From: Pseudobacter ginsenosidimutans
GTDB lineage: Bacteria; Bacteroidota; Bacteroidia; Chitinophagales; Chitinophagaceae
Assembly (NCBI RefSeq): GCF_007970185.1
Contig: NZ_CP042431.1
Location: 6,429,342 to 6,493,341, forward strand
Direction: 5' to 3'
Length of the DNA stretch: 64,000 nucleotides
The notes below the pieces were generated by a model, which had not been told where the DNA came from, made no database searches, and saw nothing but the letters and a program-made list of their open reading frames with translations. The position numbers and the translations under genes are program-made. Below are positions 844-18,512 of this stretch, in pieces. How positions within the stretch are numbered: the stretch's first letter is position 1; each line of letters starts with the position of its first letter.

Positions 844-1127
844 ACTGTTTTCATAATTACCTTGTCGGAAAAACGAACAAGTGAAAGAAAATAGAACATA
901 ACAAGAACTGCTATGATAATGATCGACATTCTAAAAACAGGACATTCATGCGCCGGTATTTTCATAATAAAATTTCTGCGCCCCACCAGAGGAAGGAATT
1001 GATCTAAGTATTAAGAAAATAATTCTTTCTAAATGGGATTATTAAGTACCAGCAATGCTTTACAACTGCGCGAAAAATAGAATTTTGTGGATCAAGAACA
1101 GCCGATATGAATCGGGCTAAAACACAA

Positions 1128-1146
1128 AACCTGCGACTAGCGCGGG
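1128..1146 (-). terminator. Rho-independent terminator for the DEAD-box helicase gene.
   Basis: Hairpin cctgcgactagcgcggg. It is followed by a T-run when read on the minus strand. Confidence 0.45.
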
Positions 1147-1159
1147 CTAAAATGCTGAG

Positions 1160-1185
1160 CGAACCGGATTGGAAGTTTTTCGAAC
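1160..1185. repeat. att-like direct repeat R1, an imperfect copy of the tRNA-Arg 3' end.
   Basis: gaaccggattggaagtttttcgaacc. About 80 bp of the flanking sequence is also shared with R3. Confidence 0.5.
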
Positions 1186-1262
1186 CTTTTACAGGAAGAC
1201 TTGAGAAATCTTCCTGGCTTCAGTAAGGCCAATATTGAGGCTGATGTCCGCCAGCGTAATTT

Positions 1263-2405
1263 TTAAAAGCCCTGCAGATTAAGATCGTCACTTTCCCGAA
1301 TTTCTACTTTTTTTCCCATCTTTTTCTGGATAATGTCAAAATGATGCTGGTCATCAGGGCATATCAGCGAAACAGCCTTGCCCGAAATCCCCGCCCTGCC
1401 GGTACGGCCGATTCGATGAATATAATCTTTGGGAGAACGTGGCAGCTCGTAGTTAATGACTATAGGCAATTGCTGAATATCAATACCTCGCGAAGCAAGA
1501 TCAGACGCTACCAGTACCCGCAGCTTGCCTGCTTTAAAACGTTGCAGCGTTTCAAGGCGAGCAGTTTGACTCAAGTGGCCGTGCAAAGAAGCTGCCTGTA
1601 TTTTATTTTTGATAAGCTTGCCGGTAAGGTTATCTGCCGTTCTTACGGCAGAGGTAAATACCAGCACCTGCTGCATGCCTTCATTCTTGATCAGGTAACG
1701 TAAAAGCGGCCCTTTACGTGCTTCGGTTACATGATAGGCAAGCTGTTCAATCAGTTCTATACTCTGCTCTTCATCTACCACTTCAATCGTTACTGGCTGG
1801 CGTAACAGGTGACGCTGCATATCTTCAATATCTTCACTGGCAGTGGCAGAGAACAACAGGTTCTGGCGTTTGGCCGGTAGCAACTGAAACACATTATCCA
1901 TCTCCTCTTTAAAGCCCAGGTTCAGCATTTTATCGGCTTCATCCAGCACCAGTATATCTACTTGTGACAAGTGCACAGTTTTATGGTGTATCAGATCAAT
2001 CAATCGGCCCGGAGTAGCTATTAATATTTCAATGCCATGCAAGGCCATCATTTGTGGGTTGATGGAAACACCACCATACACCGCCATTGTTTTTATATCA
2101 TTTGGCAGGTAAGCGCAGAAGGTTTTACAAACATCATTTACTTGTATAGCCAGTTCCCGTGTGGGCACTATTACCAGTACCCGCACGTGTCTGTCTTTCT
2201 TTTCTACCCGGCGCCGGCACAATTCCAATATAGGCAATACGTAACCGGCAGTTTTGCCAGAGCCGGTTTTAGATATGCCGAGTATATCCTTTCCCTGTAA
2301 GATAGCAGGAATAGACTGCTGCTGCACAGGCGTAGGTTGTGTAAATGACTGCTCGCCTATTGCCTTTAATAACGGTGCGGATAAACCCAATTCGGAAAAT
2401 GCCAT
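1263..2405 (-). CDS. DEAD-box ATP-dependent RNA helicase (RhlE/DeaD-like).
   Basis: All the DEAD-box motifs are present: Q-motif, motif I GSGKTAGY, PTRELA, DEAD in LVLDEADKML, SAT, and HRIGRTGRAG. Confidence 0.9.
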   Translation of the reverse strand: MAFSELGLSAPLLKAIGEQSFTQPTPVQQQSIPAILQGKDILGISKTGSGKTAGYVLPILELCRRRVEKKDRHVRVLVIVPTRELAIQVNDVCKTFCAYLPNDIKTMAVYGGVSINPQMMALHGIEILIATPGRLIDLIHHKTVHLSQVDILVLDEADKMLNLGFKEEMDNVFQLLPAKRQNLLFSATASEDIEDMQRHLLRQPVTIEVVDEEQSIELIEQLAYHVTEARKGPLLRYLIKNEGMQQVLVFTSAVRTADNLTGKLIKNKIQAASLHGHLSQTARLETLQRFKAGKLRVLVASDLASRGIDIQQLPIVINYELPRSPKDYIHRIGRTGRAGISGKAVSLICPDDQHHFDIIQKKMGKKVEIRESDDLNLQGF

Positions 2406-2589
2406 CTTCTTTTTTGCGCAAAGCTATTGTAAATACTGCGTTTTATGGCTTGTAAAGTAAGTGGAGCAAAATCGGCTAATCGAACGGCGGACAATGACGG
2501 CCCCCAACTTCAGCTTCATCAATCCTGGTTGTTATCCCCGATCTTTAGGTTCGAAACCTGATTTTGAAGGTATATTTTAGAACACAAAA

Positions 2590-2626
2590 AAGCCTTCAAA
2601 TTCAATCGAATTTGAAGGCTTAATAT
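2590..2626 (-). terminator. Rho-independent terminator for the SWIM-domain gene.
   Basis: Perfect inverted repeat gccttcaaattc/gaatttgaaggc. It is followed by a T-run on the minus strand. Confidence 0.5.
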
Positions 2627-2632
2627 TTTTGA

Positions 2633-2660
2633 GTGAACCGGATTGGAAGTTTTTCGAACC
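2633..2660. repeat. att-like direct repeat R2, an imperfect copy of the tRNA-Arg 3' end.
   Basis: gtgaaccggattggaagtttttcgaacc. The first 15 nt are identical to the tRNA-Arg 3' end at 21249-21263. Confidence 0.5.
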
Positions 2661-2695
2661 GGCTCAGACAGGAACTAACAACATTATCTGGCGCT

Positions 2696-4444
2696 TCAAG
2701 CAGGTAATTTACACAGCTCCTCAATAAGTGCCTTACGTGCTTTGAATTGAGTAGAAAGACTGGACGAAATTTTCTTAACCTTTTCTTTTCCTTCCTTCCA
2801 CTGAAGTATTTTTTCCAAAATCCCTCTAACAAAGACATAGTGATTCCGGCCGGTATTTTCTTTCAAATATTGGGTAATAGCTTTATAATAAGCATCCACC
2901 AATTCAGATAGATAATTATTTGGCAGATATTGTGAAAAAGATTCCAGTAAATGTAACTGTGGATTCCTCTGAAGCAAGTTTACGAGCTGAGGCCAATATG
3001 ATTCTTCAATGAAAATAGCCGCAATGTTTTCTGCATTAAGTGATCTGTCCAGATGAGCAAAGTTCTTGTTTGATGTTTCAAGATCATCTATTAATTTGAA
3101 AACAATCGCCGGCCATTCATCCGGAAGGTAAGTGCCTTTTAGCACACGATAGTATTTCATATCATGGCCCTCATACAGATCCAGGGAAATTGCCCGAACC
3201 TGATCAACATCTCCCTGGAGTTGAGCTATTTTCAATTGAAGTTCTTTGAATTGGTCTATTGTTCCGGCCAGCTTCTTTTTCTTTGCTATAGATATCCCGT
3301 CAACACAGAGCTTTTTAGCCTGATCAAAATCCTTTAAAGTGATGCATTCTTCAATAAGGCTAATTCTTAATTCTGTGTATTCAAGATGATGAAGTCTCAG
3401 TTTGGTAGCATCTTCGTGCGCACCCAAATTTTGCAGTAATCTGATCTTGTGTTTAAGTAACCGAACCATATCAAATTCGACGGACCATTCTTTTGAAATT
3501 ATATTCAACCCAGATAAAAGTTTATCGACAAGAGCAAGTGCCTTATCCTGCTTGTATTTGTCATATGCAGCTTTTATCGCCAGCCCAAGCCACTCATCAT
3601 CAAAACCTGCAAAGTCGTATTTCTTTTCCTGGGCCGCTTTCAATGCTCCCTCAAATATGCGGTTTCTAAGATCGCCGGGAATGGGCAGATCAAGTAATCT
3701 ATTGAGTAAAGAAAAGCTTTCGCTAATACAGGTGCCAGCATATCCACTACTGTCGTCCATATTTTCAACCATGTCATGAACTTCTTCAATAACAGCAAAT
3801 GCGATGTCCGTGCTGATGGAAAAATGCCTCTGATTCAATGCCTCCTCTGCGTTTTGGACAAGTTGCATGGCGGGCTCCAAAGCTTCCCTGGCGTGGTAAT
3901 AATCAATAAAGCCACTCCGGTCTGCCGCAGCTCTTGCAGCATTTTTAAGTAACCTGGAATATGATTTTCCATTTTCCTCTCCAAAATATCCTGCGAAATG
4001 AGCGGAAAATAGATCTCTGAAGCCCTTATTTTTTTTTGCATATTTCTTTACAAAATCCTGAAGTTCCTTTATTGGGATTTGGTTTAATGCTTCATCAACA
4101 GAGGGTTTCTTTTTTTTCTTTATTTTGTCTTCTGTTGTCGCAGCTACTGGTCCGATATCCAGAAGCAAAATTACCTCCCTGATGTAAAACAATGCAGCGA
4201 TCAAATGTTTGCAAAATTCTACATCATGCGGGCAGTCACAGGAACAATCCACAATTTTCTTTTTTACCAATGACACAAAAACGTTGTAATCATCAGACCC
4301 GGCCACAATTCCTTCCCATTTTCCAGGATCAATTTCTTCCATTTCGATAATACAGCCATCCTCGTAATAGGCTTTGCCTTTCAGAATAAGCCTGCCATCT
4401 ATCTGTTTTTCAAAAGTTTCAATATTCATCTGGCTGAATTTCAT
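2696..4444 (-). CDS. SWIM zinc-finger domain protein of unknown function.
   Basis: The N-terminus carries a CxCxnCxH signature, DCSCDCPHDVEFCKH. No other motif was recognised. The gene is low-GC. Confidence 0.55.
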   Translation of the reverse strand: MKFSQMNIETFEKQIDGRLILKGKAYYEDGCIIEMEEIDPGKWEGIVAGSDDYNVFVSLVKKKIVDCSCDCPHDVEFCKHLIAALFYIREVILLLDIGPVAATTEDKIKKKKKPSVDEALNQIPIKELQDFVKKYAKKNKGFRDLFSAHFAGYFGEENGKSYSRLLKNAARAAADRSGFIDYYHAREALEPAMQLVQNAEEALNQRHFSISTDIAFAVIEEVHDMVENMDDSSGYAGTCISESFSLLNRLLDLPIPGDLRNRIFEGALKAAQEKKYDFAGFDDEWLGLAIKAAYDKYKQDKALALVDKLLSGLNIISKEWSVEFDMVRLLKHKIRLLQNLGAHEDATKLRLHHLEYTELRISLIEECITLKDFDQAKKLCVDGISIAKKKKLAGTIDQFKELQLKIAQLQGDVDQVRAISLDLYEGHDMKYYRVLKGTYLPDEWPAIVFKLIDDLETSNKNFAHLDRSLNAENIAAIFIEESYWPQLVNLLQRNPQLHLLESFSQYLPNNYLSELVDAYYKAITQYLKENTGRNHYVFVRGILEKILQWKEGKEKVKKISSSLSTQFKARKALIEELCKLPA

Positions 4445-4554
4445 AAATTATTTGAAGTGTCTCACAAGCACCGTTAGCTATTTTGTAGCAAAAAAACGTA
4501 ATTTTAGCTAAATTAGATACCTCGCTACCTGAATTAAAGCAAATCTTACTTATT

Positions 4555-6051
4555 ATGGCAGTTACTTCTTTAGGATTTCAATGGTTAAAAGAGCATTATT
4601 ATTTGGATCATCACATCCTGACTCATTGCTCTTATTTAGGTAGCCGTGGATCCATAGAAATGACTTCCAAAGGAAATATTGAACAAATATATGGCAGTGG
4701 ATACGCTACCAAAAACAACACTCCATTAGAACATCTTGAATTCGGAATCAAATACGATGATCTGAACCTTGATTTTCTGCAATCTGTTTTCCGCAAGATG
4801 CGAAAGGGGGAAGTGGAAGCATTTATCCGGCAATCTCCTTCCGGCAAGTACCACCGGAAGATTGGTTTTTTGTATGAACTGCTTACCGGAACTGATCTAA
4901 TGACTGAGCTACAGGTAAATGCCAATTACATAGACCTACTTGATGAGGAAAAATACATTACAGGGACTATGGTTAAGAATAGTAAATGGAGAATCAATAA
5001 CAATTTGTTAGGTGATCATCAGTTCTGTCCGATTGTTAGAAGAACACACCGATTGTCTGGTCTTTTGGAAATAAATATAGAGGATAGCATCGGAAAGATT
5101 CGCCGCGAATATCCGGAAGATATCTTCAGCCGAGTGATCAGGTACCTCTATAATAAAGAGACTAAGTCTTCCTATGAAATTGAAAAGGAGCAGCCGTCGC
5201 CAGACAGAATGGATAAATTCATCGCTTTATTGATGAAGGCTGGCAGCGAAGATCCGGCAACAATGTTGAGTAAGCAAGAGCTGATCGCCCTACAAAATGC
5301 AATTGTTGATCCTCGATACGCAGCAAAGGATTTCAGGGATTTTCAAAATTATGTCGGAGAGCTTTTGCCCAATTACCAGGAACTGATCCATTATATCTGC
5401 CCACCACCAACTTTAGTGAATTCCTTAATGGATGGGCTTCAGGAATGCTGGTTCAAAGCGAATACGGTTCCTGCCAGCCTCAAGGCAGCCATAATATCAT
5501 TCGGCTTTGTATTTATTCATCCGTTTGAAGACGGAAACGGCAGGCTTCACCGGTTTCTTATTCATGATATCCTTGTACAAGGAGGAATGGTTCCTAAAGG
5601 CCAGATAGTGCCCGTTTCTGCGCATATGCTCAGTAATCTCAAAGACTATGACTATGTACTGGAAAAATACTCAGATCCGTTAATGCTTCGTGCTAAATAT
5701 GAGAAAAACCAGGTTGGAGAAATCAGTATATCCAATCTTGAAAATGTTGAAGGATATTATCGCTACCCTGATTTGACAGATCAATGCGTTTACCTTCTGG
5801 AAACGATACATGCTACGATCAAGGAAGATATGCCTGCAGAATTTGCCTTTCTGCAACGGTATGACGAAGCCAAAAAGGCTTTGCAGAATATTGTTGATAT
5901 GCCTGACAAGGATATTAATCTGATGCTTATTTTTTTACATCAGAATAAAGGAGAATTTCCGAAGCGCAGAAGACTACAGTTTTCAAAATTAACTGATGAG
6001 GAAATTTTCCAGATGGCTAAGGTGTATAAGGAAATTTATGAACTGCCGTAA
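4555..6051 (+). CDS. Fic/Fido family protein (AMPylation-type motif).
   Basis: Canonical Fic motif HPFEDGNGRLHR inside FVFIHPFEDGNGRLHRFLIHDIL. Confidence 0.8.
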   Translation: MAVTSLGFQWLKEHYYLDHHILTHCSYLGSRGSIEMTSKGNIEQIYGSGYATKNNTPLEHLEFGIKYDDLNLDFLQSVFRKMRKGEVEAFIRQSPSGKYHRKIGFLYELLTGTDLMTELQVNANYIDLLDEEKYITGTMVKNSKWRINNNLLGDHQFCPIVRRTHRLSGLLEINIEDSIGKIRREYPEDIFSRVIRYLYNKETKSSYEIEKEQPSPDRMDKFIALLMKAGSEDPATMLSKQELIALQNAIVDPRYAAKDFRDFQNYVGELLPNYQELIHYICPPPTLVNSLMDGLQECWFKANTVPASLKAAIISFGFVFIHPFEDGNGRLHRFLIHDILVQGGMVPKGQIVPVSAHMLSNLKDYDYVLEKYSDPLMLRAKYEKNQVGEISISNLENVEGYYRYPDLTDQCVYLLETIHATIKEDMPAEFAFLQRYDEAKKALQNIVDMPDKDINLMLIFLHQNKGEFPKRRRLQFSKLTDEEIFQMAKVYKEIYELP

Positions 6052-6152
6052 TGATGCAAGCAACGGGATAGGATTCGAACCGCAATGCAATTGGAAGATA
6101 GGTAGATTCGGAAAGGAACGGTCTATATGACTGAAGCAGAAATACAAAACCC

Positions 6153-6170
6153 GCGACTAGCGCGGGTTTG
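6153..6170 (+). terminator. Rho-independent terminator for the Fic gene.
   Basis: Hairpin cccgcgactagcgcggg followed by tttg. Confidence 0.45.
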
Positions 6171-6179
6171 AAATCTTAA

Positions 6180-6207
6180 GTGAACCGGATTGGAAGTTTT
6201 TCGAACC
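6180..6207. repeat. att-like direct repeat R3. This is probably the distal junction of the integrase-bearing element.
   Basis: gtgaaccggattggaagtttttcgaacc. A second partial T-arm-like fragment, ggattcgaacc, lies at about 6069-6080. Confidence 0.55.
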
Positions 6208-6477
6208 TTTTAAGGAAGGAGTTATCTCAAATAAAACCATTAATCAGCTAACAATCAATAGTTTATGGGTTTTGGTAGTTATTAAGTAGAGGTGATTTTA
6301 AGTCGGTTTAGAAGCGACGCTCATAAACTTTAACTATAGTTGCCGCATTCAATTGTTACTAAGCTCTGGGTAATTATTCTTCACTAATATATTTAGGAAC
6401 GCTTTCCTAAAATTCTTATCTTCGGTATAGTCATAAGCAAGTCTTTGTGCATCATTGCATTTCGCTTGCTCTAGGCT

Positions 6478-7917
6478 TTGCAGCTAATCAAACATTTTAT
6501 TATGTCAAAGATTGTAAGTGACTCCCATGTTACGGGAATGAAAGGCACTAACCTGTTTGAGCGGTACTGTTTACATCATCAACCTGTGATTATTTTTAAA
6601 GAAACTCTAAAAAGTGACTTCGGAATTGACGCTGATTTGGAGATGATGGAGAAAAATGAAAACGGTAAAACTACACCTACAGGTGAGATTATTAAAGTAC
6701 AGGTTAAAACAGACGGGACAGGTGGTGTGGGCAAGTCCTATATCCGAAACTCCACACAAAATGGCTTCGACTTTTATGCTTCAAAGGAAGATCTTGACTA
6801 CTGGATAAAATATAAAACTCACGGGTATGAAGTGCTACTGGTTGTTGTCGATGCTGTCAATGAAAAAATATACTGCCGTAAAGTAATTGAAACCGATATT
6901 GGTACAGTTACTTTAGCTATTAAGAAGAAGAAAAGCTATCCAATTCAATTTGACAAGGAGGCTCATTTACTCGAGACGGGTAAAAGTGATTTCCGAGAAA
7001 GATTCTCGAATACCTTTCGCTCCAGGGTGAATTATAATGTTACTGAAACTATTGTTAGTAATCTGATGAAGTTTCAAAAACATCCGCGTTATATGTATGC
7101 TTACAAAAGCAAATACAAGGACAACAGGGCTGTCAGAAATCTAGTAACAAGCGAAGAATCGGAGCTAAGTTTTGGGGACTGTCCGTTTTACATTGCGTAT
7201 GGGAGTATTGTTTATACTTTCCATAGATTAGGCAAAGAATACGCCTTATTCAAATCAAAGGTGCTGATTGACGACAATCCTATCACCTACAACTATTCAG
7301 CAATCTTAGAAAGTGTAGTATTGCGAAGACACTATGTAGAGCTTTTGAATGAATATTTTAGGGACGATTTACGCAAAAAACGCTTGTTTTATAGCCGACA
7401 ATATAAACGCTTTTATTTTAGCTTTAATCCGGAAAAGGATGAAGCCCCACTCACTGTTAAAGCCAAAACAAAAATACGGGAAGCAGAAGTGGATAGAAAG
7501 GTGGTTACTTGGCATGAATACGGGCAGAGTTATAAATTTTATCGCCATCTGGCCTTTAGTCTACATTTCTTATTTATCGAAGATACTCTCTACGCTACCT
7601 TAGGCCACAAATATTTCTTCACAGAAGATGGTCGAAAGGCATTGCCGCCGTTGGAAATTACAAAGTTTACCAATTTTCTTACCGCTAGAGTGTACAATGA
7701 TGCGTATTATGGTTGGCTTCGTTTTTGGTGGATTTATCTATCAAAAGATAGTGAACAATGGGACGTTTTTGACTATAACGGTGTTACAATAAAACTTCAG
7801 TCCTTTTATGCGGAAGATGTACCATTCGGCATTCCCATGGAAAATAAAGTAGAAAAAGTTAAAGTAAAAAGCCGCAAGAAATCTACTTCATATTCAAATG
7901 AAAACACACTATTTTAA
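6478..7917 (+). CDS. Partner protein of a short-pAgo system. The proposed architecture is an N-terminal PD-(D/E)xK (DUF4365/DREN-like) nuclease plus a C-terminal APAZ domain. The start may instead be at 6502.
   Basis: It sits immediately upstream of a MID-PIWI gene with a 2-nt spacer, and its size (479 aa) is typical of effector-APAZ proteins. The N-terminus has D/E...K-type residues (GIDADLE, KVQVK). The domain assignment is an inference, not a demonstrated match. Confidence 0.5.
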   Translation: MQLIKHFIMSKIVSDSHVTGMKGTNLFERYCLHHQPVIIFKETLKSDFGIDADLEMMEKNENGKTTPTGEIIKVQVKTDGTGGVGKSYIRNSTQNGFDFYASKEDLDYWIKYKTHGYEVLLVVVDAVNEKIYCRKVIETDIGTVTLAIKKKKSYPIQFDKEAHLLETGKSDFRERFSNTFRSRVNYNVTETIVSNLMKFQKHPRYMYAYKSKYKDNRAVRNLVTSEESELSFGDCPFYIAYGSIVYTFHRLGKEYALFKSKVLIDDNPITYNYSAILESVVLRRHYVELLNEYFRDDLRKKRLFYSRQYKRFYFSFNPEKDEAPLTVKAKTKIREAEVDRKVVTWHEYGQSYKFYRHLAFSLHFLFIEDTLYATLGHKYFFTEDGRKALPPLEITKFTNFLTARVYNDAYYGWLRFWWIYLSKDSEQWDVFDYNGVTIKLQSFYAEDVPFGIPMENKVEKVKVKSRKKSTSYSNENTLF

Positions 7918-7919
7918 TT

Positions 7920-9521
7920 ATGAAAATAGAGCTGTTAAAAGAACCTCAACTGGAATTCGGTAATGACTTTATTTGCGATGATCCTAAAGTAGGTATCTCC
8001 TTAGGTGGTTTTTTCTCTCTGACAAATAATACTCATCGATCAGAAATCCACTATGGAATAATAGGTACGGAAGCTAACATTGCAGAGGCAATTGACTGGA
8101 TCGGTGCATTTGATGAATACATTGAGGCTAAGGGTAAGGAAGAAAAGGTCGATCAAATAGACGATGCTGTAATTGAGGATGGTGAAATCGTCGATATCAA
8201 TGATGACCAGTTGTCGTTATCCAGCCTCCTTTTTTTAAAGACCGAAGATGAAATTCAGGAAGGTGAAACTCAAAGGCTTAACAACACAAAGAAAGTTAAC
8301 AAAAAAAACAACCCTGATTTTATCGGCTTCAATCCTCATAGTAAGATCAGTTCATCCTTTATCAATGATGAATCTAACAATCGAGACATACCATTATCTA
8401 AGTTAATGAATATCCTGAGAGATAAGACGATTAATGCTTTCGATAAAGCAATCAGGGTATGCGACCTATACATACAAGCATATGATTTCATCCTTACCAA
8501 AAGTATATCAAAACCAGCTGTTTGTTTTATCGTAATTCCTTCTGAGGTATTTAAAAAACTTTCTTCTATCAGCTTTGGTGGAAAAGGTTATTTTAACCTT
8601 CGCCGACATTTGAAGGCACAACTGATTACGAGACCCCAGGCCATCCCGGTACAGATCATTTTGGAAGATACTATTACCCAGAAAAAAGGCTCGTTGCAAG
8701 ATTTATCCATGCAAGCCTGGAATTTTTGTGTCGCTACCTATTATAAAAGTGGATCTATACCATGGACGCTTTCGATGAATGATAAACATACCTGTTTTAT
8801 AGGTATTAGCTTTCATAAAGTACTAAATGGGGAGCAGAACGCGATTCGATCTAGCGTCGCCCAAGCCTTCAACTATGAAGGTAAAGGATTAATTTTTGTA
8901 GGAGAACATTTTGAATGGAATGAACACGAGATGGATACTCCTGCACCGCATCTTACCCATGACTATGCGTATAACCTTATCAAAAAAGTGATTAATGAGT
9001 ATAAAGTATTCAATAAGAACATGCCGCCTCTACGTGTCGTGATTCATAAGACAACTTCATATTGGGATGCAGCCGTTAACGCAGATTATGCGGAGGTGGA
9101 AGGGTTAAAAAGTGGCATTCGAAGTGAATTGGGGGAAGATGTAAAAATTGACTTAGTCACCATTCGTTCTACTGACATAAAGCTGCTTCGAGAAACCGGC
9201 CAGTACCCTGTCATGAGAGGCACACTACTGCATGTTGACGACGCCACCGGAATATTATATACGACCGGCTACATACCTTACTTTGAAACTTTTCCGAGTA
9301 TGGCAATACCAAGGCCACTTGAAATAAGTGTATATGAGCAAGAATCATCACTTAAGAAAATCTGCGAAGAGATACTAGCATTAACAAAATTAAACTTCAA
9401 TAATTGCAACTACTACGACAGTTTGCCGATTACTATTCGGTTTGCACAGAAGGTTGGGGAGATAACACAATACATTGAAAAAGATATTACCCCTCCCGAT
9501 AAATATTTTTTTTACATGTAG
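7920..9521 (+). CDS. Short prokaryotic Argonaute (MID-PIWI). The RNase-H catalytic tetrad is degenerate.
   Basis: PIWI-like C-terminal half: RVVIHK, LLHVDDATGILYTTGY, and the terminal LPITIRFAQKVGE (compare PxPxYYA..A.R). The first catalytic position is substituted (FIGISFHKV). The 533 aa length fits a short pAgo. Confidence 0.7.
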   Translation: MKIELLKEPQLEFGNDFICDDPKVGISLGGFFSLTNNTHRSEIHYGIIGTEANIAEAIDWIGAFDEYIEAKGKEEKVDQIDDAVIEDGEIVDINDDQLSLSSLLFLKTEDEIQEGETQRLNNTKKVNKKNNPDFIGFNPHSKISSSFINDESNNRDIPLSKLMNILRDKTINAFDKAIRVCDLYIQAYDFILTKSISKPAVCFIVIPSEVFKKLSSISFGGKGYFNLRRHLKAQLITRPQAIPVQIILEDTITQKKGSLQDLSMQAWNFCVATYYKSGSIPWTLSMNDKHTCFIGISFHKVLNGEQNAIRSSVAQAFNYEGKGLIFVGEHFEWNEHEMDTPAPHLTHDYAYNLIKKVINEYKVFNKNMPPLRVVIHKTTSYWDAAVNADYAEVEGLKSGIRSELGEDVKIDLVTIRSTDIKLLRETGQYPVMRGTLLHVDDATGILYTTGYIPYFETFPSMAIPRPLEISVYEQESSLKKICEEILALTKLNFNNCNYYDSLPITIRFAQKVGEITQYIEKDITPPDKYFFYM

Positions 9522-9534
9522 TAATTTCTTTGAA

Positions 9535-10743
9535 TTATCTCTTTCTTTTTTTATAAATTTTCCAATAAATATTATTAAAATAACTATCGGCCTCAAGCAT
9601 ATTTTGCAGTCCTAATTCTTGACTAATTTCTTCTACCAAATCGCAATACTCCTCATAGTCATTTCCATTAAAAGATTCTGGACTTGCTTTGATAAATACA
9701 TCCCCCTCATATCTCAAAACGGTAATGGGATTCTTATTTAGGTTTGCAAAACGACGAGGTTCATATGTCATCATTATTTCAGTAATATAATTGATGCTAG
9801 CGCCTTTTATCCCTGATACTATTTGTTTAGCCTGTGTAAACAATTGTGAAGGCGATAAATGGATATTGGTTCTAATAAATCGAACAAGTCGTTGAAATTC
9901 CTGAAAATACGGGTAAACATCTCTCCTTAATCGAAGCATACTTCCACTATGCCACCAGCCGTGCTCGCCAGCTTCCCCAACTAAGTCATCCAAGAGGATT
10001 GCGAATTCAACTTGTGTTAATTTCTTAGCATCTGCAATTGCATTTAAGACTTTCATCGCTTCTTCATAATGCCATTGCTTTTCCTTGAATTCTTGCTTTC
10101 GTCTTGTTGTATCAAATTTTTCAAAATGCGCTTTTAGATTCAGATAGTTGAATTCTTTTTGGCTTTTACTCCTGTCGGGGGTGGCTTTAGTTTTCTTATT
10201 GTGAGTTTTTTGTGCCTCATAAAATGTCTCATATCTTCTTATAGCCAATAACGTTGCGACCTCTGACATTTCAGCAGAAAGTAGATGATCAAAATATCCT
10301 TTTGCATCTCTCCAAATTAAATCACTTGTAGATCCGTGTAATAACAAAGAGCATTCAATATTAGATGTAAGCCCACCTTCCGTAATATTTGCAGAACCAG
10401 ACAGTATCGAAAAATGTTCCCCTTTTCTAAATAAAAACAATTTTGGATGAAAAACTAGTGAACGTTTATGTGCGTGAGCTAAATGTAACTTGCAATTCTT
10501 TTTAGCAAGAAATAATTGCCTTAGTGAACGTAAAGCTTTAGGCTCTGTTAATGCAAAATGTTGCCCTGCTATGATGTGTACAATTTTATTGCTATGAGCA
10601 CACTTTTTAAGAATAGGAAATATTTCTTTCAAACCAGATGACTTCAAAAAGGCCGTGGCTATATACGCTTCGTCTGATTGTTCAACTAGTGAGGCTATAG
10701 TCATATTATGTGACTGTGCCTGGTGGTTACAAATAAATTGCAT
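9535..10743 (-). CDS. Phospholipase-D-family protein (Nuc-like) with a single HKD motif and an uncharacterised C-terminal half.
   Basis: HxK...GSxN motif: FHPKLFLFRKGEHFSILSGSANIT. Confidence 0.65.
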   Translation of the reverse strand: MQFICNHQAQSHNMTIASLVEQSDEAYIATAFLKSSGLKEIFPILKKCAHSNKIVHIIAGQHFALTEPKALRSLRQLFLAKKNCKLHLAHAHKRSLVFHPKLFLFRKGEHFSILSGSANITEGGLTSNIECSLLLHGSTSDLIWRDAKGYFDHLLSAEMSEVATLLAIRRYETFYEAQKTHNKKTKATPDRSKSQKEFNYLNLKAHFEKFDTTRRKQEFKEKQWHYEEAMKVLNAIADAKKLTQVEFAILLDDLVGEAGEHGWWHSGSMLRLRRDVYPYFQEFQRLVRFIRTNIHLSPSQLFTQAKQIVSGIKGASINYITEIMMTYEPRRFANLNKNPITVLRYEGDVFIKASPESFNGNDYEEYCDLVEEISQELGLQNMLEADSYFNNIYWKIYKKRKR

Positions 10744-10937
10744 ATAGTTTTTATGAAGTAAGAGTGATTTTTCCCTAATTACGGATTACTTGGTGTAAGT
10801 ATGAATGTTTATTTGGAGGGATTTCTACGCTGCAAGGAAACACCTTATTATGTTTTTGGTTGAAGTGCGATTGATTTTTTTAACCTAACTCATGCTCTCT
10901 CATCGTTAGAGTAAGTAATTTTGAAACTACTAATTGA

Positions 10938-13337
10938 TCATTCTAATGTAGTGTCTTCTTCAACTCTAACTTTTGGAAGGTCTTCAAATTCTTTTTGAAC
11001 ATTTTTTTTGTTTAGAACTCTATTCTGAATAAACGAAACAATACCCATTAACACAGATTCATCTTTTTTGTATATCGGATGCTCCTCAAGAAGTTCAAGG
11101 CAGTCAATTAAGTCTTTCTCTATTAACCGCAGTTTTTTAATGGCAATTGCATAAAAAAATTCAACTATGGCTTCTGAATGTTCGTCATCCAAATGCAGTA
11201 TCATATCCCCCAGAATCGATTTCATTTGTAGACTCAATTCTTCAGAAAGGTGATATTTCAATTCATCGTCCTTGGCAGCTCTTAATATACAGGCTTGAAT
11301 GATACCGTCGTTATAACGAACAAAGTTACCAGGATCTATTAGATGCCGAACGTATTCTGTCTGCAGGAGCTCCCCTTTATTCCTAATATCGTTAAGGATG
11401 CTTGCAATAATGAAGTATACCTCAGATTGAGAGGCAGTTACTGCAAAATCTTTAGTTGGCGCAAATGCAAACCCATTATTAATTCTTAATGGTTTGTCAT
11501 GGAAAGATGGATGGAAAAGTTCATTATCAAGCCCCTTTTGTGATCCTGAGTCATTTAGAACTCTGCTTCTTACTTGGCAATACATTAGTGTCTTGCCAAA
11601 CCTTTGTCCTGCATCTTCATCACAAAAATCATAAAGAACTTTCATGAACTCTGTCTCTATATGCCAAGGTGTTGCTATCGATTCTTGTGTGCAATGAATT
11701 CTTTCTACATTGGTAATTTTATATGTGCCTGGTCCATTTTCACCTAAACCTAGATTGGATTCGAGAAACTCAAATGAATCTTGCTTAGTGGTTCTGTTCA
11801 TAAATGTAAAAAACATACGTTGATAGTCGTTCTCAAATTGCCTCAATGCTCTACTTAGAAAAAGTAGGTTTCTTCCAGTAACCACAGATGCGCTCACTAC
11901 CGCAATTACGCCTTTTTGACCTGCCTTGACTGACTGGACTAATTTGTCATCTGCAATTATGCATGACCTATCAATGGTGGCTCCGTTTTTAGAAAGTATA
12001 TCAACAATTAATTCTGCTAACTTTTTAGAGGCTATATCAGATAATGTTACAATATACTTTAATGAAGAAGGAAAACTTTGAATGACTCTTTTTTCAAACT
12101 TCGTATACATGCTTCTATAAGCATCTTTAACGCTTGGATCGCCCGTCCAACTATCAATCAAAGCTTCTAAGTCAATAAAGAGCTCGTATTTTCGATTTTG
12201 ATTTGAGTTTTCTTTATAAAATACTCTAAAAATAGCTGGCACATTAATATTGGGTCGATAGTATCCTGATAGGTTACGTATGTGAGTTGGAAGATCAGAT
12301 TTTTTAATAAGGTAAGGGGAAACAGCAGGTTTTTCGAGAAGAAAGACATCACCTTCCACAGGAATTGGTACAGATTTATCTTCACAAAACTTGCAAATTT
12401 CTCCATTATTCCTGTTATAAGACTTAAATGAAGCCAAACCCTCTGGATTTGAATTAGGATCTTTTTTTAAGTCGCAAATCACTTGAGGAATAAAAGTGGA
12501 CTCTACACCTAATCCATAAATTACTGCAATGTCATTTAATTCAATAGAATGTGCGTTTTCTCTAGTCATCCGCCTCAAAATACTACCAGAAGTGGAAGAT
12601 GAAATCAAAAAAATACTATTACGAGGTGCTTTAAAAGCGCTTTTTTCAAAAAGGCTATATGAGCCAAAACTTTCGACATGTATAGAAGTATTGGAAGGAT
12701 CACCCAGTTCCTTCCGAAGATTAATATAGGCATATGCCAATGAATTGATGGAAGAAGTATCACAGTAAATATGGTGCAAATCTCTCTGCTTAAAGCGTGT
12801 CAACAAGGCGGAAGCAATGAATGTTATTTGGGCTCCATGTAATAGTACATTGCCAGGTCGCAGGAACCGGTCGCTGTGTTTGCCCGATGGGAAAACAAAG
12901 TGGTGTGCTGATCTTGAAATAATGAGCCCGTTGTTCTCAACAAAAATATTCGTTAGACCTCGATTATAAATTTCCTTGATTTCCGCTTCTGTGATAGCGC
13001 CTAATGCCGTATGAAAAATCCCTGACAACCCGATTGAGATTATCACGATATTGTTTTCGCTTGGATTTTGTTGAAATTTTGGAATATACTCGTATATGTC
13101 TGAGGTAGCTTGAAATAGGTTAAGAACATCGTTCTTATTGAAGTCTAAACAAATAATAATCAGTTTATCAGGTAGTGTATTCGAGAAAAAATAACTTCTG
13201 AATTGAAATTGAATATTAGATTTATTCAATAAGACATCTTTATAAGCAAAGAACACCACAAGATGATTTTGCCTCTGTAAGCCTTTTTGAGGAACGTCGA
13301 CTATTTTGTAATAGTCATACATAAAGCAAGTCTTCAT
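10938..13337 (-). CDS. Large hypothetical protein (799 aa) with no secure domain call.
   Basis: Long ORF translationally coupled to the upstream HATPase gene (stop and start 1-2 nt apart). Two loops, IFLISSSTSGS and VIAVVSASVVTGRN, weakly resemble a degenerate PRTase-type phosphate-binding loop. This is a very tentative reading. Confidence 0.4.
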   Translation of the reverse strand: MKTCFMYDYYKIVDVPQKGLQRQNHLVVFFAYKDVLLNKSNIQFQFRSYFFSNTLPDKLIIICLDFNKNDVLNLFQATSDIYEYIPKFQQNPSENNIVIISIGLSGIFHTALGAITEAEIKEIYNRGLTNIFVENNGLIISRSAHHFVFPSGKHSDRFLRPGNVLLHGAQITFIASALLTRFKQRDLHHIYCDTSSINSLAYAYINLRKELGDPSNTSIHVESFGSYSLFEKSAFKAPRNSIFLISSSTSGSILRRMTRENAHSIELNDIAVIYGLGVESTFIPQVICDLKKDPNSNPEGLASFKSYNRNNGEICKFCEDKSVPIPVEGDVFLLEKPAVSPYLIKKSDLPTHIRNLSGYYRPNINVPAIFRVFYKENSNQNRKYELFIDLEALIDSWTGDPSVKDAYRSMYTKFEKRVIQSFPSSLKYIVTLSDIASKKLAELIVDILSKNGATIDRSCIIADDKLVQSVKAGQKGVIAVVSASVVTGRNLLFLSRALRQFENDYQRMFFTFMNRTTKQDSFEFLESNLGLGENGPGTYKITNVERIHCTQESIATPWHIETEFMKVLYDFCDEDAGQRFGKTLMYCQVRSRVLNDSGSQKGLDNELFHPSFHDKPLRINNGFAFAPTKDFAVTASQSEVYFIIASILNDIRNKGELLQTEYVRHLIDPGNFVRYNDGIIQACILRAAKDDELKYHLSEELSLQMKSILGDMILHLDDEHSEAIVEFFYAIAIKKLRLIEKDLIDCLELLEEHPIYKKDESVLMGIVSFIQNRVLNKKNVQKEFEDLPKVRVEEDTTLE

Positions 13338-13338
13338 A

Positions 13339-14550
13339 TCATTTTGTTATGGGATAAGCCATCGTTATTTGAGTCCCTTCAAACCAGCATAAGTCTTGAA
13401 AGTCTTCACTACTAAGTGTATTACAATCATACAGCTTAATATCCTTTGTGTTTTGGCTTTCAACATATGGTGTTGCTGTCAGGTCTCTAAATAGGCTAAC
13501 CCTGCCCGTTCGTATTTTTAGAAACCCTCTTTTTTGATCTAATAACTTCAATACATCATCGAGCCCATAACCTTTATTCATTCTTGCCGGACCTTTTACC
13601 GAACTTTCCCCACGGACTAGGCAAGTTTTGATGATATTGACATCTTCATAAACTTCTGCATCTTCCGCCCAGTCAGATCCTTTATAGCGTTTCACCATAC
13701 CTGGACCACTATCAAATACAGATATTTCTAACACTAAATTATCCCCATCTATTAGGCTCTTGGCATAATATTCTAATAATGCAGGATCCTCCTTTGCATT
13801 TTTTTCAAAATTGGCTTTGCTACTTTGATGTAACTTTATGTATAATCCTCTGGTATTAGGAGACAGTGTTTTTTGATCCAAATGATCTTTTATCGCATGT
13901 TCATTGGTATTACCCATTAGCTCCCAGATAATTCGAGTGGTTGTATCTAAAAGATCTGAGACAGCATTTGTAATTCGTGAACGGTAAATTGAACTAATCT
14001 TTTCAAATATGCGATAAGTCGTATTATCCAATTCCGAAGGGACACTTGCAAAGGAGTAATTGTTGATGTAGAACCAATGAGAAAGTCCTTTATCGACTGG
14101 GTAGTGATCGAAGTTTGGAATTACTATTTCAAAATTGGGTAAGTCTTGGAGGAAATCAATTCGTTTCCGCATATTATTAGTATGCTCTCGAAGCAAAGGT
14201 TTGAGATCAGTACCATCTTTAGCAACAATCTTAGTGTCTTTCCATACAGTAATAACGATTACGTATCCATAGTTACTTTCTATAAAATCTGCAAGCCCTT
14301 GTTTGTTATTCGGATCAATGTCAATTATGAGTGTACCGCGACAAGTACGAATCCATGTAAAAACGAACAAGAACAATGAAGGTATAACACCAAACCCTCT
14401 GTAAAAAACCTCACTAGGTATCTGCAAATCTACAACACCTTCAAGGGCGGCTGTCATGCTGCTACCAAGTTTGTCTATAAGCCCTGCAGTTACCTCTTTA
14501 GGGATGGAAAGTCTAGTTTTATTGAGACCATTATTTCCACTTATACTCAT
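13339..14550 (-). CDS. HATPase_c (GHKL-type) ATPase-domain protein with an unknown N-terminal domain.
   Basis: N-box IWELMGNTNEHA, G1 box VFDSGPGM, G2 box GYGLDD. Confidence 0.55.
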   Translation of the reverse strand: MSISGNNGLNKTRLSIPKEVTAGLIDKLGSSMTAALEGVVDLQIPSEVFYRGFGVIPSLFLFVFTWIRTCRGTLIIDIDPNNKQGLADFIESNYGYVIVITVWKDTKIVAKDGTDLKPLLREHTNNMRKRIDFLQDLPNFEIVIPNFDHYPVDKGLSHWFYINNYSFASVPSELDNTTYRIFEKISSIYRSRITNAVSDLLDTTTRIIWELMGNTNEHAIKDHLDQKTLSPNTRGLYIKLHQSSKANFEKNAKEDPALLEYYAKSLIDGDNLVLEISVFDSGPGMVKRYKGSDWAEDAEVYEDVNIIKTCLVRGESSVKGPARMNKGYGLDDVLKLLDQKRGFLKIRTGRVSLFRDLTATPYVESQNTKDIKLYDCNTLSSEDFQDLCWFEGTQITMAYPITK

Positions 14551-14664
14551 CGGCGTGTCTACTCTTTAAGTCAATGAAATACTGTTTTACTAAGAAACCC
14601 AAAGGATTTTAATCTTATTAATCAAAATCAAGCTTAACTAAAATATACTTTCACTAATTGTAAT

Positions 14665-16572
14665 TTATTGGGCAAACAAGTTATTTTGTTCTTCCAGATT
14701 TGAAATTGATTTATGAGCCCACTCTATTTTTGAAAGTAGATTAAAAGTTCTGGCGTGCGCTTGCTTAAGTACAGAGCTGTATCTTCTAGGAATAATTGAG
14801 GTATGACCCTCATACCCTGGGTCAGCAACATCCCCCTCGCTATCAATACTAGACCCCAACACATAACAAATGATTTTTGTACTCTTGTCTACATGTCCGG
14901 CTTTCCTTATTTCCCTTGCATAATTTTTTGCCTGGTCTTTTTCCTGATAACCCAACTTAAATCCTCCTCTTTTCAGCTCAACAATTACAACGCAATCAAT
15001 TCCGGATACATTATGTTCATCATCATAGCCGTCTCTTGAATAGACTCCAATTGAACTATCTGGGACTACCACAAAATCTGGCCGTCTTCCAGGTGACTCT
15101 AAGGCAGCATTTCCGAAATATTTCTTTACGATTGTAGCTAAAGTCCTATTAGAAGTAAAGCTTAGTGATTCAAACTCGGGTCCAAATATCCAAAGGCCCC
15201 TTTCAAATAATGGTTGTAAGTCATGCAACTCATCTGCGTTACTATTATTTACCAAAGGCTCTAGCTTATTAATCAGGTCAAGTCTCCATTGTAGCTCGTT
15301 CATTATTTTCTTAATGTCACTTATGCTCCATTCGTCTAGAATTGCATTTAGGCTATCCAAATCATTAGCCTTAAGTTGTGCCAATTTTTCTAATAATGAA
15401 TAACCAGATCTTGATTTTTCCATATTTGCCAAAACTTTGACAGTACTTTCAAGCTCATTAACTCCAAAAGTGGGGCAATCTTTTTGGAACTCATCAATTA
15501 TTTCAGATATATCTTGTCTAATGTGAGCTGGCAAAGTTTTTATCAAGTCTTTGTTTGCTGAAAACGCATCGTTTTTCCTTTCTGTTCTACTTGCTGTTAA
15601 AAGAGTAATCAAATCTTCGTTTATATGATCGTATACTTTTTTTAAGACATTGTTTAGCTCAGGCGAAGCATGAAAACCAGACCAGTCAGCTTTTACAAAT
15701 GGCTTTAGAATATCAGCTTCTACGATATATACATAACGTTTCGCAATTGCATTTCTTCCATCAATTAATCTCCCACTAACATTTTCCCAACTTGGAGTAC
15801 CTACTAAACGCCTATTTACCCACCATGCCACACCTTGATGCTGAGTTGTCCTATTATTCTCACCTTCAAATCTTTTCACTTTTACAATCCCGACATTTTC
15901 AATGTTAATCTCAGTTATGTCACTTTCTTGCTCTAACTCCTCAAAATCTACTTTTATGCTATTAATAGATAAAACAAATTCAGGATCTGCAATAAATTTT
16001 GAACCAACTACCTTTAGTATTGTATTTTGTGATAGGCTTATGTTTTTATTAGCAACACCACTAATGGTAGTTCCATGCATAGTGGATGTTTTTGAAGTTT
16101 GATTTTCGAGTATTTCAACTGAATAAGGGAAATCTCCCTTGGGAGTTTTAATCACTCTTGCTCTGGTTTTTTGCCCATCCTTGTGCGTTTCGACAATATA
16201 TTCATTGCAGAAGCAAAACATTGCATGTCTTCCAATCCCATTTTTTCCAAATGCAGTTCTTTGTCTACCGCTTCGTCCTTTTGGAAATTCTACATTCCTC
16301 CCTTGCAATGCGATTCGATTGTAGTTAAGTTTTCCCCATCGGAAGCTGAACTCTTCTTTTGTCATTCCTAATCCATCATCGTGGATAAGAATTGTATCTC
16401 CAATTTTATCAGGCCACTTTATTTCAACATTACCTGCTCCCGCATCCCAAGCATTTGCTACCAATTCAACAATAGCATAGCGAGGATCATCAATGATTTG
16501 TCCAGCATGATGTTCAAGAAAATTTTCACCGAATGATAAAGACAGTTGTTCAGAAGGCGTTGGTGTAGCCAT
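14665..16572 (-). CDS. GHKL ATPase (MutL/MORC/Hsp90-like Bergerat fold) fused to a C-terminal PD-(D/E)xK-like nuclease module.
   Basis: N-terminal motifs IVELVANAWDAGA, IHDDGLGM and GKNGIGR. The C-terminus has DFVVVPD ... CVVIVELKRGG, a D...ExK pattern. Confidence 0.6.
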   Translation of the reverse strand: MATPTPSEQLSLSFGENFLEHHAGQIIDDPRYAIVELVANAWDAGAGNVEIKWPDKIGDTILIHDDGLGMTKEEFSFRWGKLNYNRIALQGRNVEFPKGRSGRQRTAFGKNGIGRHAMFCFCNEYIVETHKDGQKTRARVIKTPKGDFPYSVEILENQTSKTSTMHGTTISGVANKNISLSQNTILKVVGSKFIADPEFVLSINSIKVDFEELEQESDITEINIENVGIVKVKRFEGENNRTTQHQGVAWWVNRRLVGTPSWENVSGRLIDGRNAIAKRYVYIVEADILKPFVKADWSGFHASPELNNVLKKVYDHINEDLITLLTASRTERKNDAFSANKDLIKTLPAHIRQDISEIIDEFQKDCPTFGVNELESTVKVLANMEKSRSGYSLLEKLAQLKANDLDSLNAILDEWSISDIKKIMNELQWRLDLINKLEPLVNNSNADELHDLQPLFERGLWIFGPEFESLSFTSNRTLATIVKKYFGNAALESPGRRPDFVVVPDSSIGVYSRDGYDDEHNVSGIDCVVIVELKRGGFKLGYQEKDQAKNYAREIRKAGHVDKSTKIICYVLGSSIDSEGDVADPGYEGHTSIIPRRYSSVLKQAHARTFNLLSKIEWAHKSISNLEEQNNLFAQ

Positions 16573-16706
16573 TGCTAAAACGGTTAAAATGATTTTATTC
16601 GAAGTGTATTCGAATTATGATCAAAAGACATTAATGTAAGAAATAGAGAAACAGTAAAGACCATAAGAGTGAATGAAAGAAGACTTAGATCTAATAGAAC
16701 TTTCTT

Positions 16707-16976
16707 CTACTTTCTCTTACTTTTTTTCTCCATCTTGTCAAAAATCAAGTTCGTCACAATTCTCGGATCTACTCCAATCAGATCAGCTAACCTTTTAATA
16801 TGCTTGATGGCAAAGTCTTCAGGTTTTTTTACCCGTTTCAGGAATGTATCATAGTGGATACCGACAGTCGTTTTGAGCTTGGTTTTACCCACGATACTAA
16901 CGATTTCGTCCATATCCTCGATACTACCGGATTCCAGTAGTCGCTTGAGAGTCTTATATGCGTCCTGGTCTGCCAT
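16707..16976 (-). CDS. Small (89 aa) basic hypothetical protein. It may be the regulator or first gene of the minus-strand cluster.
   Basis: ORF at the head of the co-oriented cluster, with a lysine-rich C-terminus. No motif was recognised. Confidence 0.3.
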   Translation of the reverse strand: MADQDAYKTLKRLLESGSIEDMDEIVSIVGKTKLKTTVGIHYDTFLKRVKKPEDFAIKHIKRLADLIGVDPRIVTNLIFDKMEKKSKRK

Positions 16977-17339
16977 TAAATAATGAAGTTTGGCAAAATA
17001 TCAATAACCTCCTGAAATACAATGGAATATTTCGATACTGATACTATTGATTCATATTTGAAATAAATATTTCGATTTTGAAATTTTATTATAACTTTGA
17101 TCACATCAAACGTTAACCTAAAAACGAATCTGTCATGAATTCATCATAGTATCGCTTATCTTGCGAACACATAACTTATTTCAAGCGTGTTTGCTTTATT
17201 CCTGGTTCTGAAAACTACGACCTTTCAAATGATCCCAGAGTAATAAGGTAAATCGCTCACGTCTTGGCGTGGGCGTTCTTATATGGGATCAGGGTGTCGT
17301 AGCCCTTCAGACCGATAGGAACTAACCCACGTCATTTTT

Positions 17340-18503: not shown

Positions 18504-18512
18504 ATGAATTGA

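Follow-up and report, generated by a model that had tools for sequence, protein, structure and literature searches.

Which kind of system is encoded by two abutting genes at positions 6478 to 9521 of a 64,000-nucleotide (nt) stretch of DNA from Pseudobacter ginsenosidimutans (contig NZ_CP042431.1, positions 6,429,342 to 6,493,341; here called the window, in whose coordinates all positions are given)? From the letters and their open reading frames (ORFs), an original prediction had read the pair as a short prokaryotic Argonaute (pAgo) operon, in which a nuclease-APAZ partner precedes an inactive MID-PIWI protein. Our analysis supports the operon reading and allows a more precise assignment. With a probability of about 0.82, we take the pair to be a SPARDA-type short-pAgo defense system, a two-gene operon whose products would form a heterodimer of the pAgo with the APAZ domain of a DREN-APAZ effector. 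Every defining feature of SPARDA that can be tested computationally is present. The architecture, the folds, the conservation of catalytic and guide-binding residues, the synteny, and the defense-island context are established below.

Gene pair, start codon, and junction

Two plus-strand ORFs are listed for this region, one at 6478 to 7917 (479 amino acids [aa] from a TTG) and one at 7920 to 9521 (533 aa from an ATG). These positions and a 2-nt gap had been predicted, and both were confirmed: the junction reads TTT TAA tt ATG AAA, with an intergenic gap of exactly 2 nt. The pAgo gene stops with a TAG at 9519 to 9521, and the end of a convergent gene lies only 13 nt further on. The short, tight junction and a convergent gene end right after the pAgo gene thus delimit an operon of two genes.

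The predicted partner length of 479 aa is correct for the ORF counted from TTG 6478 but not for the protein, which has 471 aa. The effector is 100% identical to RefSeq WP_130540607.1, a 471-aa "DUF4365 domain-containing protein" from Pseudobacter ginsenosidimutans (Chitinophagaceae, Bacteroidota), and its N terminus from ATG 6502 reads MSKIVSD. All of the aligned effector homologues (29 of 29) begin at a Met or Val equivalent to ATG 6502. The frame is open from TTG 6478, but the RefSeq protein and the homologue starts rule that codon out, and the comparison of sequences makes ATG 6502 almost certainly the true start. The DREN(DUF4365)-APAZ effector gene is accordingly placed at 6502 to 7917 on the plus strand (471 aa plus stop). 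The pAgo gene, with its MID and PIWI domains, occupies 7920 to 9521 on the same strand (533 aa plus stop), as supported by the ORF list, PADLOC pAgo_I, Foldseek, and RefSeq, where the exact sequence is found as WP_130540608.1 (533 aa, "argonaute/piwi family protein," Pseudobacter ginsenosidimutans).

A DREN nuclease domain fused to APAZ

The effector matched the PADLOC model Aga_REase-PNTD1-PNTD2 over its full length (E value, 7e-47), and Pfam DUF4365 was found above the cutoff at aa 28 to 162 (E value, 2.8e-13). The DREN nuclease domain, which has a PD-(D/E)xK fold, covers aa 1 to approximately 165 (6502 to 6996, plus strand), as delimited by Pfam DUF4365, by profile alignment, and by the topology of the AlphaFold2 (AF2) model, which runs H7-24, E31-37, E41-51, E57-70, H95-106, E111-117. 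The mean predicted local distance difference test score (pLDDT) of that model is 84, falling below 50 for aa 454 to 471. PD-(D/E)xK-like residues had been noticed at the N terminus, and the nuclease is indeed there, in both the DUF4365 match and the fold. The literal PD-(D/E)xK motif is not; the signature is a D...QxK variant composed of D43 (6628 to 6630), Q67 (6700 to 6702), and K69 (6706 to 6708), all on the plus strand. In the profile alignment, the segments GiDg (D43) and KvQlK (Q67 and K69) fall on G39-I-D41-G and V-Q60-I-K62 of NbaDREN. D41, Q60, and K62 are catalytic in NbaSPARDA, where their mutation abolishes or impairs both collateral nuclease activity and defense (PMC12205087; 10.1101/2023.06.08.544223). 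Across the family, D43 and Q67 are invariant (46/46) and K69 is kept in 45 of 46 effectors; conservation was re-derived on 48 pAgo and 45 partner sequences translated from the genome loci.

The remainder of the effector, at aa approximately 175 to 444 (7024 to 7833, plus strand), is an APAZ domain, the part expected to pair with the pAgo. APAZ had been predicted on this partner, and it was recovered independently by the PADLOC PNTD1-PNTD2 model, by phmmer against chain 9om4_A, by the family profile, which matched the APAZ of 9om4_A, 9jsb_D, and 9qbl_A, and by Foldseek, where APAZ-only matches gave target-normalized template modeling (TM) scores of 0.70 to 0.78 (0.70 to 0.76 for 9qbp_A, 9om4_A, and 9qbl_A). 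Neither TIR nor SIR2 is found among the Pfam domains of the effector, and no HNH match was obtained with Pfam or PADLOC. The SIR2-APAZ models of PADLOC match aa 181 to 426 only, which is the APAZ region, and the expectation of a nuclease effector instead of TIR or SIR2 thus stands.

A search of the Protein Data Bank (PDB) by phmmer with the single effector sequence returned the effector of SPARHA (9om4_A), matched in its APAZ portion only (aa 174 to 417, 37 bits), and no DREN-APAZ chain even at an E value of 10. The non-SPARDA effector that this match led us to suspect was ruled out when both a family profile and a fold search recovered the DREN-APAZ chains of SPARDA. The profile, built from 30 homologues, matched the Nba, Xau, and EaeSPARDA chains at E values of 4e-30 to 1e-21, with 3.8e-30 for the NbaSPARDA DREN-APAZ chain 9jsb_D and an essentially full-length match to the Xau and Eae DUF4365 proteins 9qbq_A and 9qbp_A. 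Likewise, the best Foldseek matches of the effector model were the Eae, Xau, and NbaSPARDA DREN-APAZ chains, aligned over 445 to 480 columns with E values of 1e-23 to 1e-15.

A short pAgo with an intact guide pocket and a PIWI domain predicted to be noncatalytic

The pAgo matched PADLOC pAgo_I over its full length (E value, 8e-129). For both proteins the PADLOC models settle the identity, at E values that chance could not produce. The Pfam Piwi match at aa 241 to 515 (E value, 1.4e-5; 25 bits) stays under the gathering score of 28.9, and a check with Pfam only is therefore equivocal for this protein. It aligns end to end with the 455-aa PADLOC pAgo_I models and with solved short pAgos of 465 to 485 aa, and it has a MID and a PIWI domain but neither an N nor a PAZ domain, its extra length being due to one disordered insertion. 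The ten best sequence matches in the PDB are all short-pAgo chains, headed in phmmer by AcaSPARHA (9om4_B, 213 bits), then by SPARDA chains (9qbp_B, 9jsb_A, and 9qbl_B, 151 to 163 bits), and then by SPARTA pAgos. The AF2 model (mean pLDDT, 75; predicted TM score, 0.75) superimposes in Foldseek on SPARDA, SPARHA, and SPARTA pAgos with target-normalized TM scores of 0.83 to 0.89, SPARDA being best at 0.86 to 0.89. Both the sequence and the fold searches thus place the PIWI-like protein within the short pAgos, as had been proposed.

The MID domain carries an "RK"-type pocket for the guide 5' phosphate, composed of R228 (8601 to 8603), K232 (8613 to 8615), and K276 (8745 to 8747) on the plus strand, as identified by alignment to AcaAgo and NbaAgo. 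R228 and K232 align with R180 and K184 of AcaAgo, which are 5'-phosphate anchors (PMC12738770), and all three residues align with R183, K187, and K240 of NbaAgo, which mutation has shown to be required (PMC12205087; 10.1101/2023.06.08.544223). The pocket is conserved throughout the family, with R228 in 48 of 49 sequences (a single K being the exception) and K232 and K276 in 49 of 49 each.

The PIWI domain extends over aa approximately 251 to 533 (8670 to 9518, plus strand) and is devoid of catalytic acidic residues. Its motifs are G-I-S297-F, H376-K-T-T379, and R-F508-A, and S297, K377, and F508 are invariant in 49 pAgo sequences, with residues at the motif positions that are all nonacidic. 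This agrees with the substituted catalytic position that had been predicted. Three stretches had been cited as PIWI motifs, and all are present: PPLRVVIHKTT at aa 369 to 379, LLHVDDATGILYTTGY at aa 436 to 451, and LPITIRFAQKVGE at aa 502 to 514; the last had been called terminal, but 19 residues follow it. We placed GIS297F, H376-K-T-T, and RF508A at the DEDX positions by the corresponding motifs of hAgo2, namely, GADV, YRDG, and YAH. A comparison of the family profile with an hAgo2 PIWI sequence gave only a nonsignificant 20-residue match in hmmsearch and spurious alignments in hhalign. The three motifs match GISFH, RVVIHKTT, and LPITLRF of AcaAgo exactly or almost exactly, and AcaAgo is described as nuclease inactive (PMC12738770). 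From the motif positions and this identity to AcaAgo, the PIWI domain is predicted to have no DEDX tetrad and to be catalytically inactive.

A family in Bacteroidota with a conserved gene pair

Scanning one genome per species, we found 58 loci, almost all of them in Bacteroidota (Chitinophagales, Cytophagales, Sphingobacteriales, and Flavobacteriales), with the addition of Fodinibius. In 48 of the 48 loci that allowed the upstream partner ORF to be scored, a DREN-APAZ homologue lies directly upstream of the pAgo gene, on the same strand and abutting it; the partner is complete in 45 loci and truncated by a contig end in 3. When 1.84 billion cluster representatives were searched exhaustively, the family proved to be essentially one cluster at 50% identity, and more distant short pAgos aligned in two blocks that skip aa approximately 75 to 125. 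These results define a coherent Bacteroidota SPARDA lineage in more than 50 genomes, with its catalytic and guide-binding residues conserved. The Pseudobacter copy belongs to this unstudied branch and is otherwise ordinary.

Some copies of the system are decayed. At one locus from a Cyclobacteriaceae metagenome-assembled genome (L041, 4791 to 5995), the pAgo gene is interrupted at profile position 62/63, on the margin of the acidic insertion region described below, by an IS3-family element that encodes an 88-aa helix-turn-helix orfA and a 278-aa DDE orfB. A second locus (L033), on a 107-kb plasmid of Hymenobacter qilianensis (NZ_CP060786.1), has a frameshifted pAgo in two ORFs that cover profile positions 2 to 96 and 109 to 533, and in a third (L050) both genes are in fragments.

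Comparison with characterized short-pAgo systems

We compared the pair with the structures of NbaSPARDA (9jsb, 9jsz, 9jt2, and 9vx6), XauSPARDA (9qbq and 9qcc), and EaeSPARDA (9qbp). It has in common with them the two-gene architecture and gene order, the DUF4365/DREN and APAZ domains of the partner, the catalytic D/Q/K residues, the RK-type pocket, and the inactive PIWI, and both proteins, compared as whole chains, match the folds of SPARDA chains best. By its published description, TmuRE-Ago of Thermocrispum municipale has the same DUF4365-APAZ plus short-pAgo architecture (PMC10810196). The TIR or SIR2 NADase that SPARTA and SPARSA carry on the APAZ partner is absent here. We looked for a missing APAZ domain, a missing nuclease fold, and a placement of the PIWI-like protein outside the pAgos, found none of these, and regard the short-pAgo operon reading as supported. 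The gaps in the original prediction were minor, namely, the start codon and the fact that this type of system has already been named and its structures solved.

Several observations weigh against the SPARDA assignment or set the pair apart from the solved systems. Identity to the characterized systems in structural alignments is low, at 24 to 27% for the pAgo and 15 to 19% for the partner (approximately 24 to 26% and 15 to 18%, respectively, for SPARDA in particular), and the solved SPARDA hosts are Alphaproteobacteria, whereas the host here belongs to Bacteroidota. The closest solved relative by sequence, for pAgo and APAZ alike, is AcaSPARHA (9om4): the pAgo profile scores it at 276 bits versus 212 to 222 bits for SPARDA and 220 bits for a SPARTA pAgo, and the APAZ profile scores 98 bits against the SPARHA effector versus 36 bits against the Xau APAZ alone. 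AcaSPARHA shares the PIWI motifs GISFH and RVVIHKTT and the R/K residues for the 5' phosphate, but its effector nuclease is HNH, as opposed to DREN/DUF4365 here, and AcaAgo has no MID insertion. Moreover, some of the AcaAgo residues that contact A1, namely, R164 and D178, are replaced here by S216 and N226. The acidic MID insertion and the basic effector tail, taken up below, likewise depart from the solved SPARDAs. Finally, we found no experiment in the literature on the Pseudobacter pair or on its Bacteroidota family.

The nearest relatives by score are all of the S2B type and include SPARHA, SPARDA, and pAgos partnered with SMEK or DUF4062 proteins. Outside the family, the next-nearest pAgos belong to S2B systems with SMEK(Mrr-like)-APAZ or DUF4062-APAZ partners (e.g., KjAgo, the plasmid matches H2 to H6, and locus L059), which have other effector domains on the APAZ partner and pAgos of 470 aa, compared with 533 aa here, that are without the acidic insertion. 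SMEK-partnered plasmid pAgos are 30 to 32% identical to the Pseudobacter protein, and the DUF4062-partnered P0166 is 42% identical. The closeness of pAgo and APAZ to SPARHA and the DUF4062 or SMEK partners of the nearest nonfamily pAgos fit effector exchange within clade S2B. At the L059 locus (1635 to 4413), P0166 is a 470-aa protein with no acidic insertion and is the nearest nonfamily pAgo; it is preceded by a 458-aa DUF4062 partner, in which there is no DUF4365, and adjoined by a HicAB toxin-antitoxin pair. This arrangement suggests that effectors are swapped between closely related pAgo chassis.

The finding introduces no new principle. The biochemical and structural characterization of SPARDA dates back to 2023, and RefSeq already lists both proteins under correct generic names. 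The greater proximity of the pAgo and APAZ to SPARHA than to the solved SPARDAs bears on effector exchange within clade S2B, and divergent SPARDA orthologues are of some applied interest, since SPARDA enzymes are under development for nucleic acid detection.

Proposed mechanism

Collateral nuclease activity that is RNA guided and activated by target DNA, filaments, and defense are known solely from the systems of Nba, Xau, and Tmu (PMC12205087, PMC12774872, 10.1101/2025.04.08.647717, PMC10810196), and protection against both plasmids and phages has been described for characterized relatives (PMC12205087, PMC12738770). By analogy to these proteins, we infer that the Pseudobacter products pair as a heterodimer, form filaments, and act as a collateral nuclease in defense, and the type of guide is deduced in the same way. 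In a mechanism modeled on NbaSPARDA, XauSPARDA, TmuRE-Ago, and AcaSPARHA (PMC12205087, PMC12774872, PMC10810196, PMC12738770), the MID pocket of R228, K232, and K276 would grip the 5' phosphate of a small guide, which is most likely an RNA that originates from the invader or from highly transcribed sequences. Once this guide has base-paired with complementary invader DNA within the channel between MID-PIWI and APAZ, PIWI loops would rearrange and oligomerization into a filament would follow, which would gather the DREN domains into an active oligomer. The DREN domain (D43/Q67/K69), with its dependence on Mg2+ or Mn2+, would degrade DNA, and possibly RNA, indiscriminately, and the infected or plasmid-bearing cell would die or halt its growth (abortive infection).

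An acidic MID insertion and a basic effector tail

The extra length of the pAgo lies in an acidic, disordered insertion in the MID domain at aa 71 to 127 (8130 to 8300, plus strand). Its net charge is -9, and within it are a conserved mini-hairpin, I-x-D-G-E-V (with I85 and G88), and an LF motif. In the family profile, residues 1 to 74 and approximately 126 to 533 align to each of the solved short pAgos, whereas nothing lies opposite residues 75 to 125, and the solved SPARDAs have no counterpart to these roughly 55 acidic, disordered residues. The pLDDT is below 50 for aa 73 to 129, which predicts disorder. All of the full-length family sequences (49 of 49) have the insertion, at lengths of 35 to 68 aa and with net charges of -4 to -19 (means of -12.6 to -13.8). 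The insertion site corresponds to residues 73 to 75 of NbaAgo; nearby is N86, one of those residues of the NbaAgo MID domain that keep the DREN tetramer in place on the active filament (PMC12205087).

An acidic MID stretch was considered as a feature unique to the family, and this was ruled out, as 14 of 116 other short-pAgo representatives reach a net charge of -10 or lower in a 50-aa window of the MID half, mostly at a different site; only the site and the motifs are family specific. The acidic windows of the other short pAgos (P0168, P0190, P0223, and others) lie mostly at aa approximately 130 to 200, just ahead of the RK motif, and D(L/F)F/FHD-like sequences are common at their ends. Loops of this acidic, disordered kind may recur in short-pAgo MID domains as a trait not yet described.

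The other departure is at the end of the effector, where a disordered C-terminal tail, PMENKVEKVKVKSRKKSTSYSNENTLF, covers aa 445 to 471 (7834 to 7914, plus strand). It is basic, with a net charge of +4, and has a conserved terminal (L/M/I)F, which is LF here; family means are +0.3 to +1.7, i.e., basic or neutral. In contrast, the effector tail of XauSPARDA is described as negatively charged and occupies the nucleic acid groove until target displaces it (10.1101/2025.04.08.647717). Such a negative tail is not found here, and it is not a class-defining feature. Given the insertion and the tail charge, regulation may differ from that of the solved SPARDAs; together, the two are the only leads toward something new, in that they could alter regulation.

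One explanation of these two departures keeps the architecture and the output of SPARDA and makes the insertion at aa 71 to 127 an autoinhibitor that mimics nucleic acid, or else an element for DREN docking. The insertion would replace the acidic C-terminal tail that is found in the XauSPARDA DREN-APAZ and in the SPARTA TIR-APAZ. The constant presence and acidity of the predicted disordered insertion in 49 of 49 members (-4 to -19), its conserved short motifs IxDGEV and LF, and its location at NbaAgo 73 to 75 are in line with this, as is a partner tail that is basic or neutral (+4 here) where that of XauSPARDA is negative (10.1101/2025.04.08.647717). Among 44 pairs, the charges of insertion and tail show a weak inverse trend (Spearman coefficient, -0.29; P = 0.059, with kinship ignored); however, the correlation falls short of significance, and the sequences share ancestry. 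Furthermore, the placement of the loop by AF2 is unreliable at a pLDDT below 50, and the acidic MID stretches in the 14 of 116 other short pAgos mean that such stretches are perhaps generic, neutral, or related to solubility. We thus give an autoinhibitory or docking role only a low probability, and the same goes for the corresponding history, in which the Bacteroidota SPARDA family would have moved a regulatory element from the effector tail to a MID insertion while the basic, LF-ending tail gained another role. If true, the family would follow a control logic of its own among short-pAgo systems and would also exemplify the joining of a DREN domain to a SPARHA-like pAgo/APAZ chassis by effector swapping.

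Guide preference

The nuclease output of SPARDA could also be served by a guide chemistry that differs from that of NbaSPARDA and XauSPARDA, for example, RNA guides with a 5' OH and another 5' nucleotide, or DNA guides. Guide rules do vary within the class, as seen with TmuRE-Ago, an RNA-guided and DNA-activated nonspecific DNase that is reported to prefer 5'-OH guides with a 5' U (PMC10810196), and the changes of the A1 contacts from R164 to S216 and from D178 to N226 could reflect such a difference. However, the R/K/K pocket predicts 5'-phosphorylated guides here, in contrast to the 5'-OH preference of TmuRE-Ago, and its conservation across the family (48/49, 49/49, and 49/49) argues for the same. 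In addition, N226 and Q260-D261 are identical to N181 and Q224-D225 of NbaAgo. We therefore consider a departure in guide chemistry to be unlikely, and a SPARDA with 5'-phosphate guides to be the better expectation.

Genomic context

The SPARDA operon resides in a low-GC island at approximately 2500 to 20000, with a GC content of 0.35 to 0.41 as opposed to 0.45 to 0.49 in the rest of the window, and many genes of the island are of defense type. To the left of the operon are genes for a SWIM zinc finger protein (2696 to 4444, minus strand) and for Fic/PDC-S24 (4555 to 6051). To its right are those for a PLD-like nuclease (9535 to 10743, minus), PDC-M65B (10938 to 13337, minus; PADLOC E value, 2.6e-238), PDC-M65A (13339 to 14550, minus; PADLOC E value, 5.9e-109), a HATPase_c_3 protein (14665 to 16572, minus), a HEPN-domain protein (17340 to 18503), and a large serine recombinase (19734 to 21329, plus) with Resolvase, Recombinase, and Zn_ribbon_recom domains. 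The 3' end of the recombinase gene overlaps, on the opposite strand, a tRNA-Arg(TCT) gene (21247 to 21323, minus). A serine recombinase, in place of a tyrosine recombinase, is unusual beside a tRNA-associated island. A 22-nt partial duplicate of the T-arm region of the tRNA is found 125 nt away, at 21133 to 21154.

A 26-nt sequence, GAACCGGATTGGAAGTTTTTCGAACC, occurs in three exact copies at 1161 to 1186, 2635 to 2660, and 6182 to 6207 (plus strand as written), where none would be expected by chance. The copies match the 3' end of tRNA-Arg(TCT) (GGTTCGAA / TCCAATCCGGTTCAC) with a 5-nt insert and are oriented like the tRNA, whose sense strand is the minus strand; a terminator-like hairpin adjoins each. 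The repeats are absent from the 58 related loci. They look like attachment (att) scars of successive integrations at the tRNA gene, which would bound segments at 1187 to 2634, 2661 to 6181, and 6208 to 21246. The SPARDA operon starts 295 nt from the third copy and is therefore at the distal end of the 6208 to 21246 segment.

This location, far out in a low-GC island that is associated with tRNA-Arg and has a serine recombinase and att-like tRNA fragment repeats, along with the family member on a Hymenobacter plasmid (L033/H1) and the decayed homologous loci (the IS3 insertion in L041, the frameshift in L033, and the fragments in L050), might be taken to mean that the pair serves its mobile island, as an addiction or stabilization module or in competition between elements, more than host defense, or that it is an inactive relic; we consider this very improbable, as both ORFs are intact here with all functional residues conserved, the neighbors are other defense genes, as is usual around systems that protect the host, characterized relatives provide defense against phages and plasmids (PMC12205087, PMC12738770), and island carriage is compatible with defense in any case.

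Around the SPARDA operon, promoter and terminator scans gave scores no better than those of shuffled sequences. The Bacteroidetes -7 consensus TAnnTTTG does not occur on the plus strand ahead of 6502, nor is the window enriched in it, and we assign no promoter. An Rfam scan of 900 to 6600 returned nothing near gathering scores, the folding of RNA from 6100 to 6260 was unremarkable (z = -1.36), and the 450-nt spacer upstream of the operon contains no small ORF of interest.

The convergent PLD-like gene, at 9535 to 10743, was considered as a third component of the system and, judged on this window, was rejected for its opposite strand. It may instead belong with the PDC-M65A and PDC-M65B genes, with which it is co-oriented. 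The PDC-M65B and PDC-M65A genes have no Pfam domain at all, and this pair, adjoining the SPARDA operon, is a candidate defense pair, as yet uncharacterized, on the basis of its PADLOC matches.

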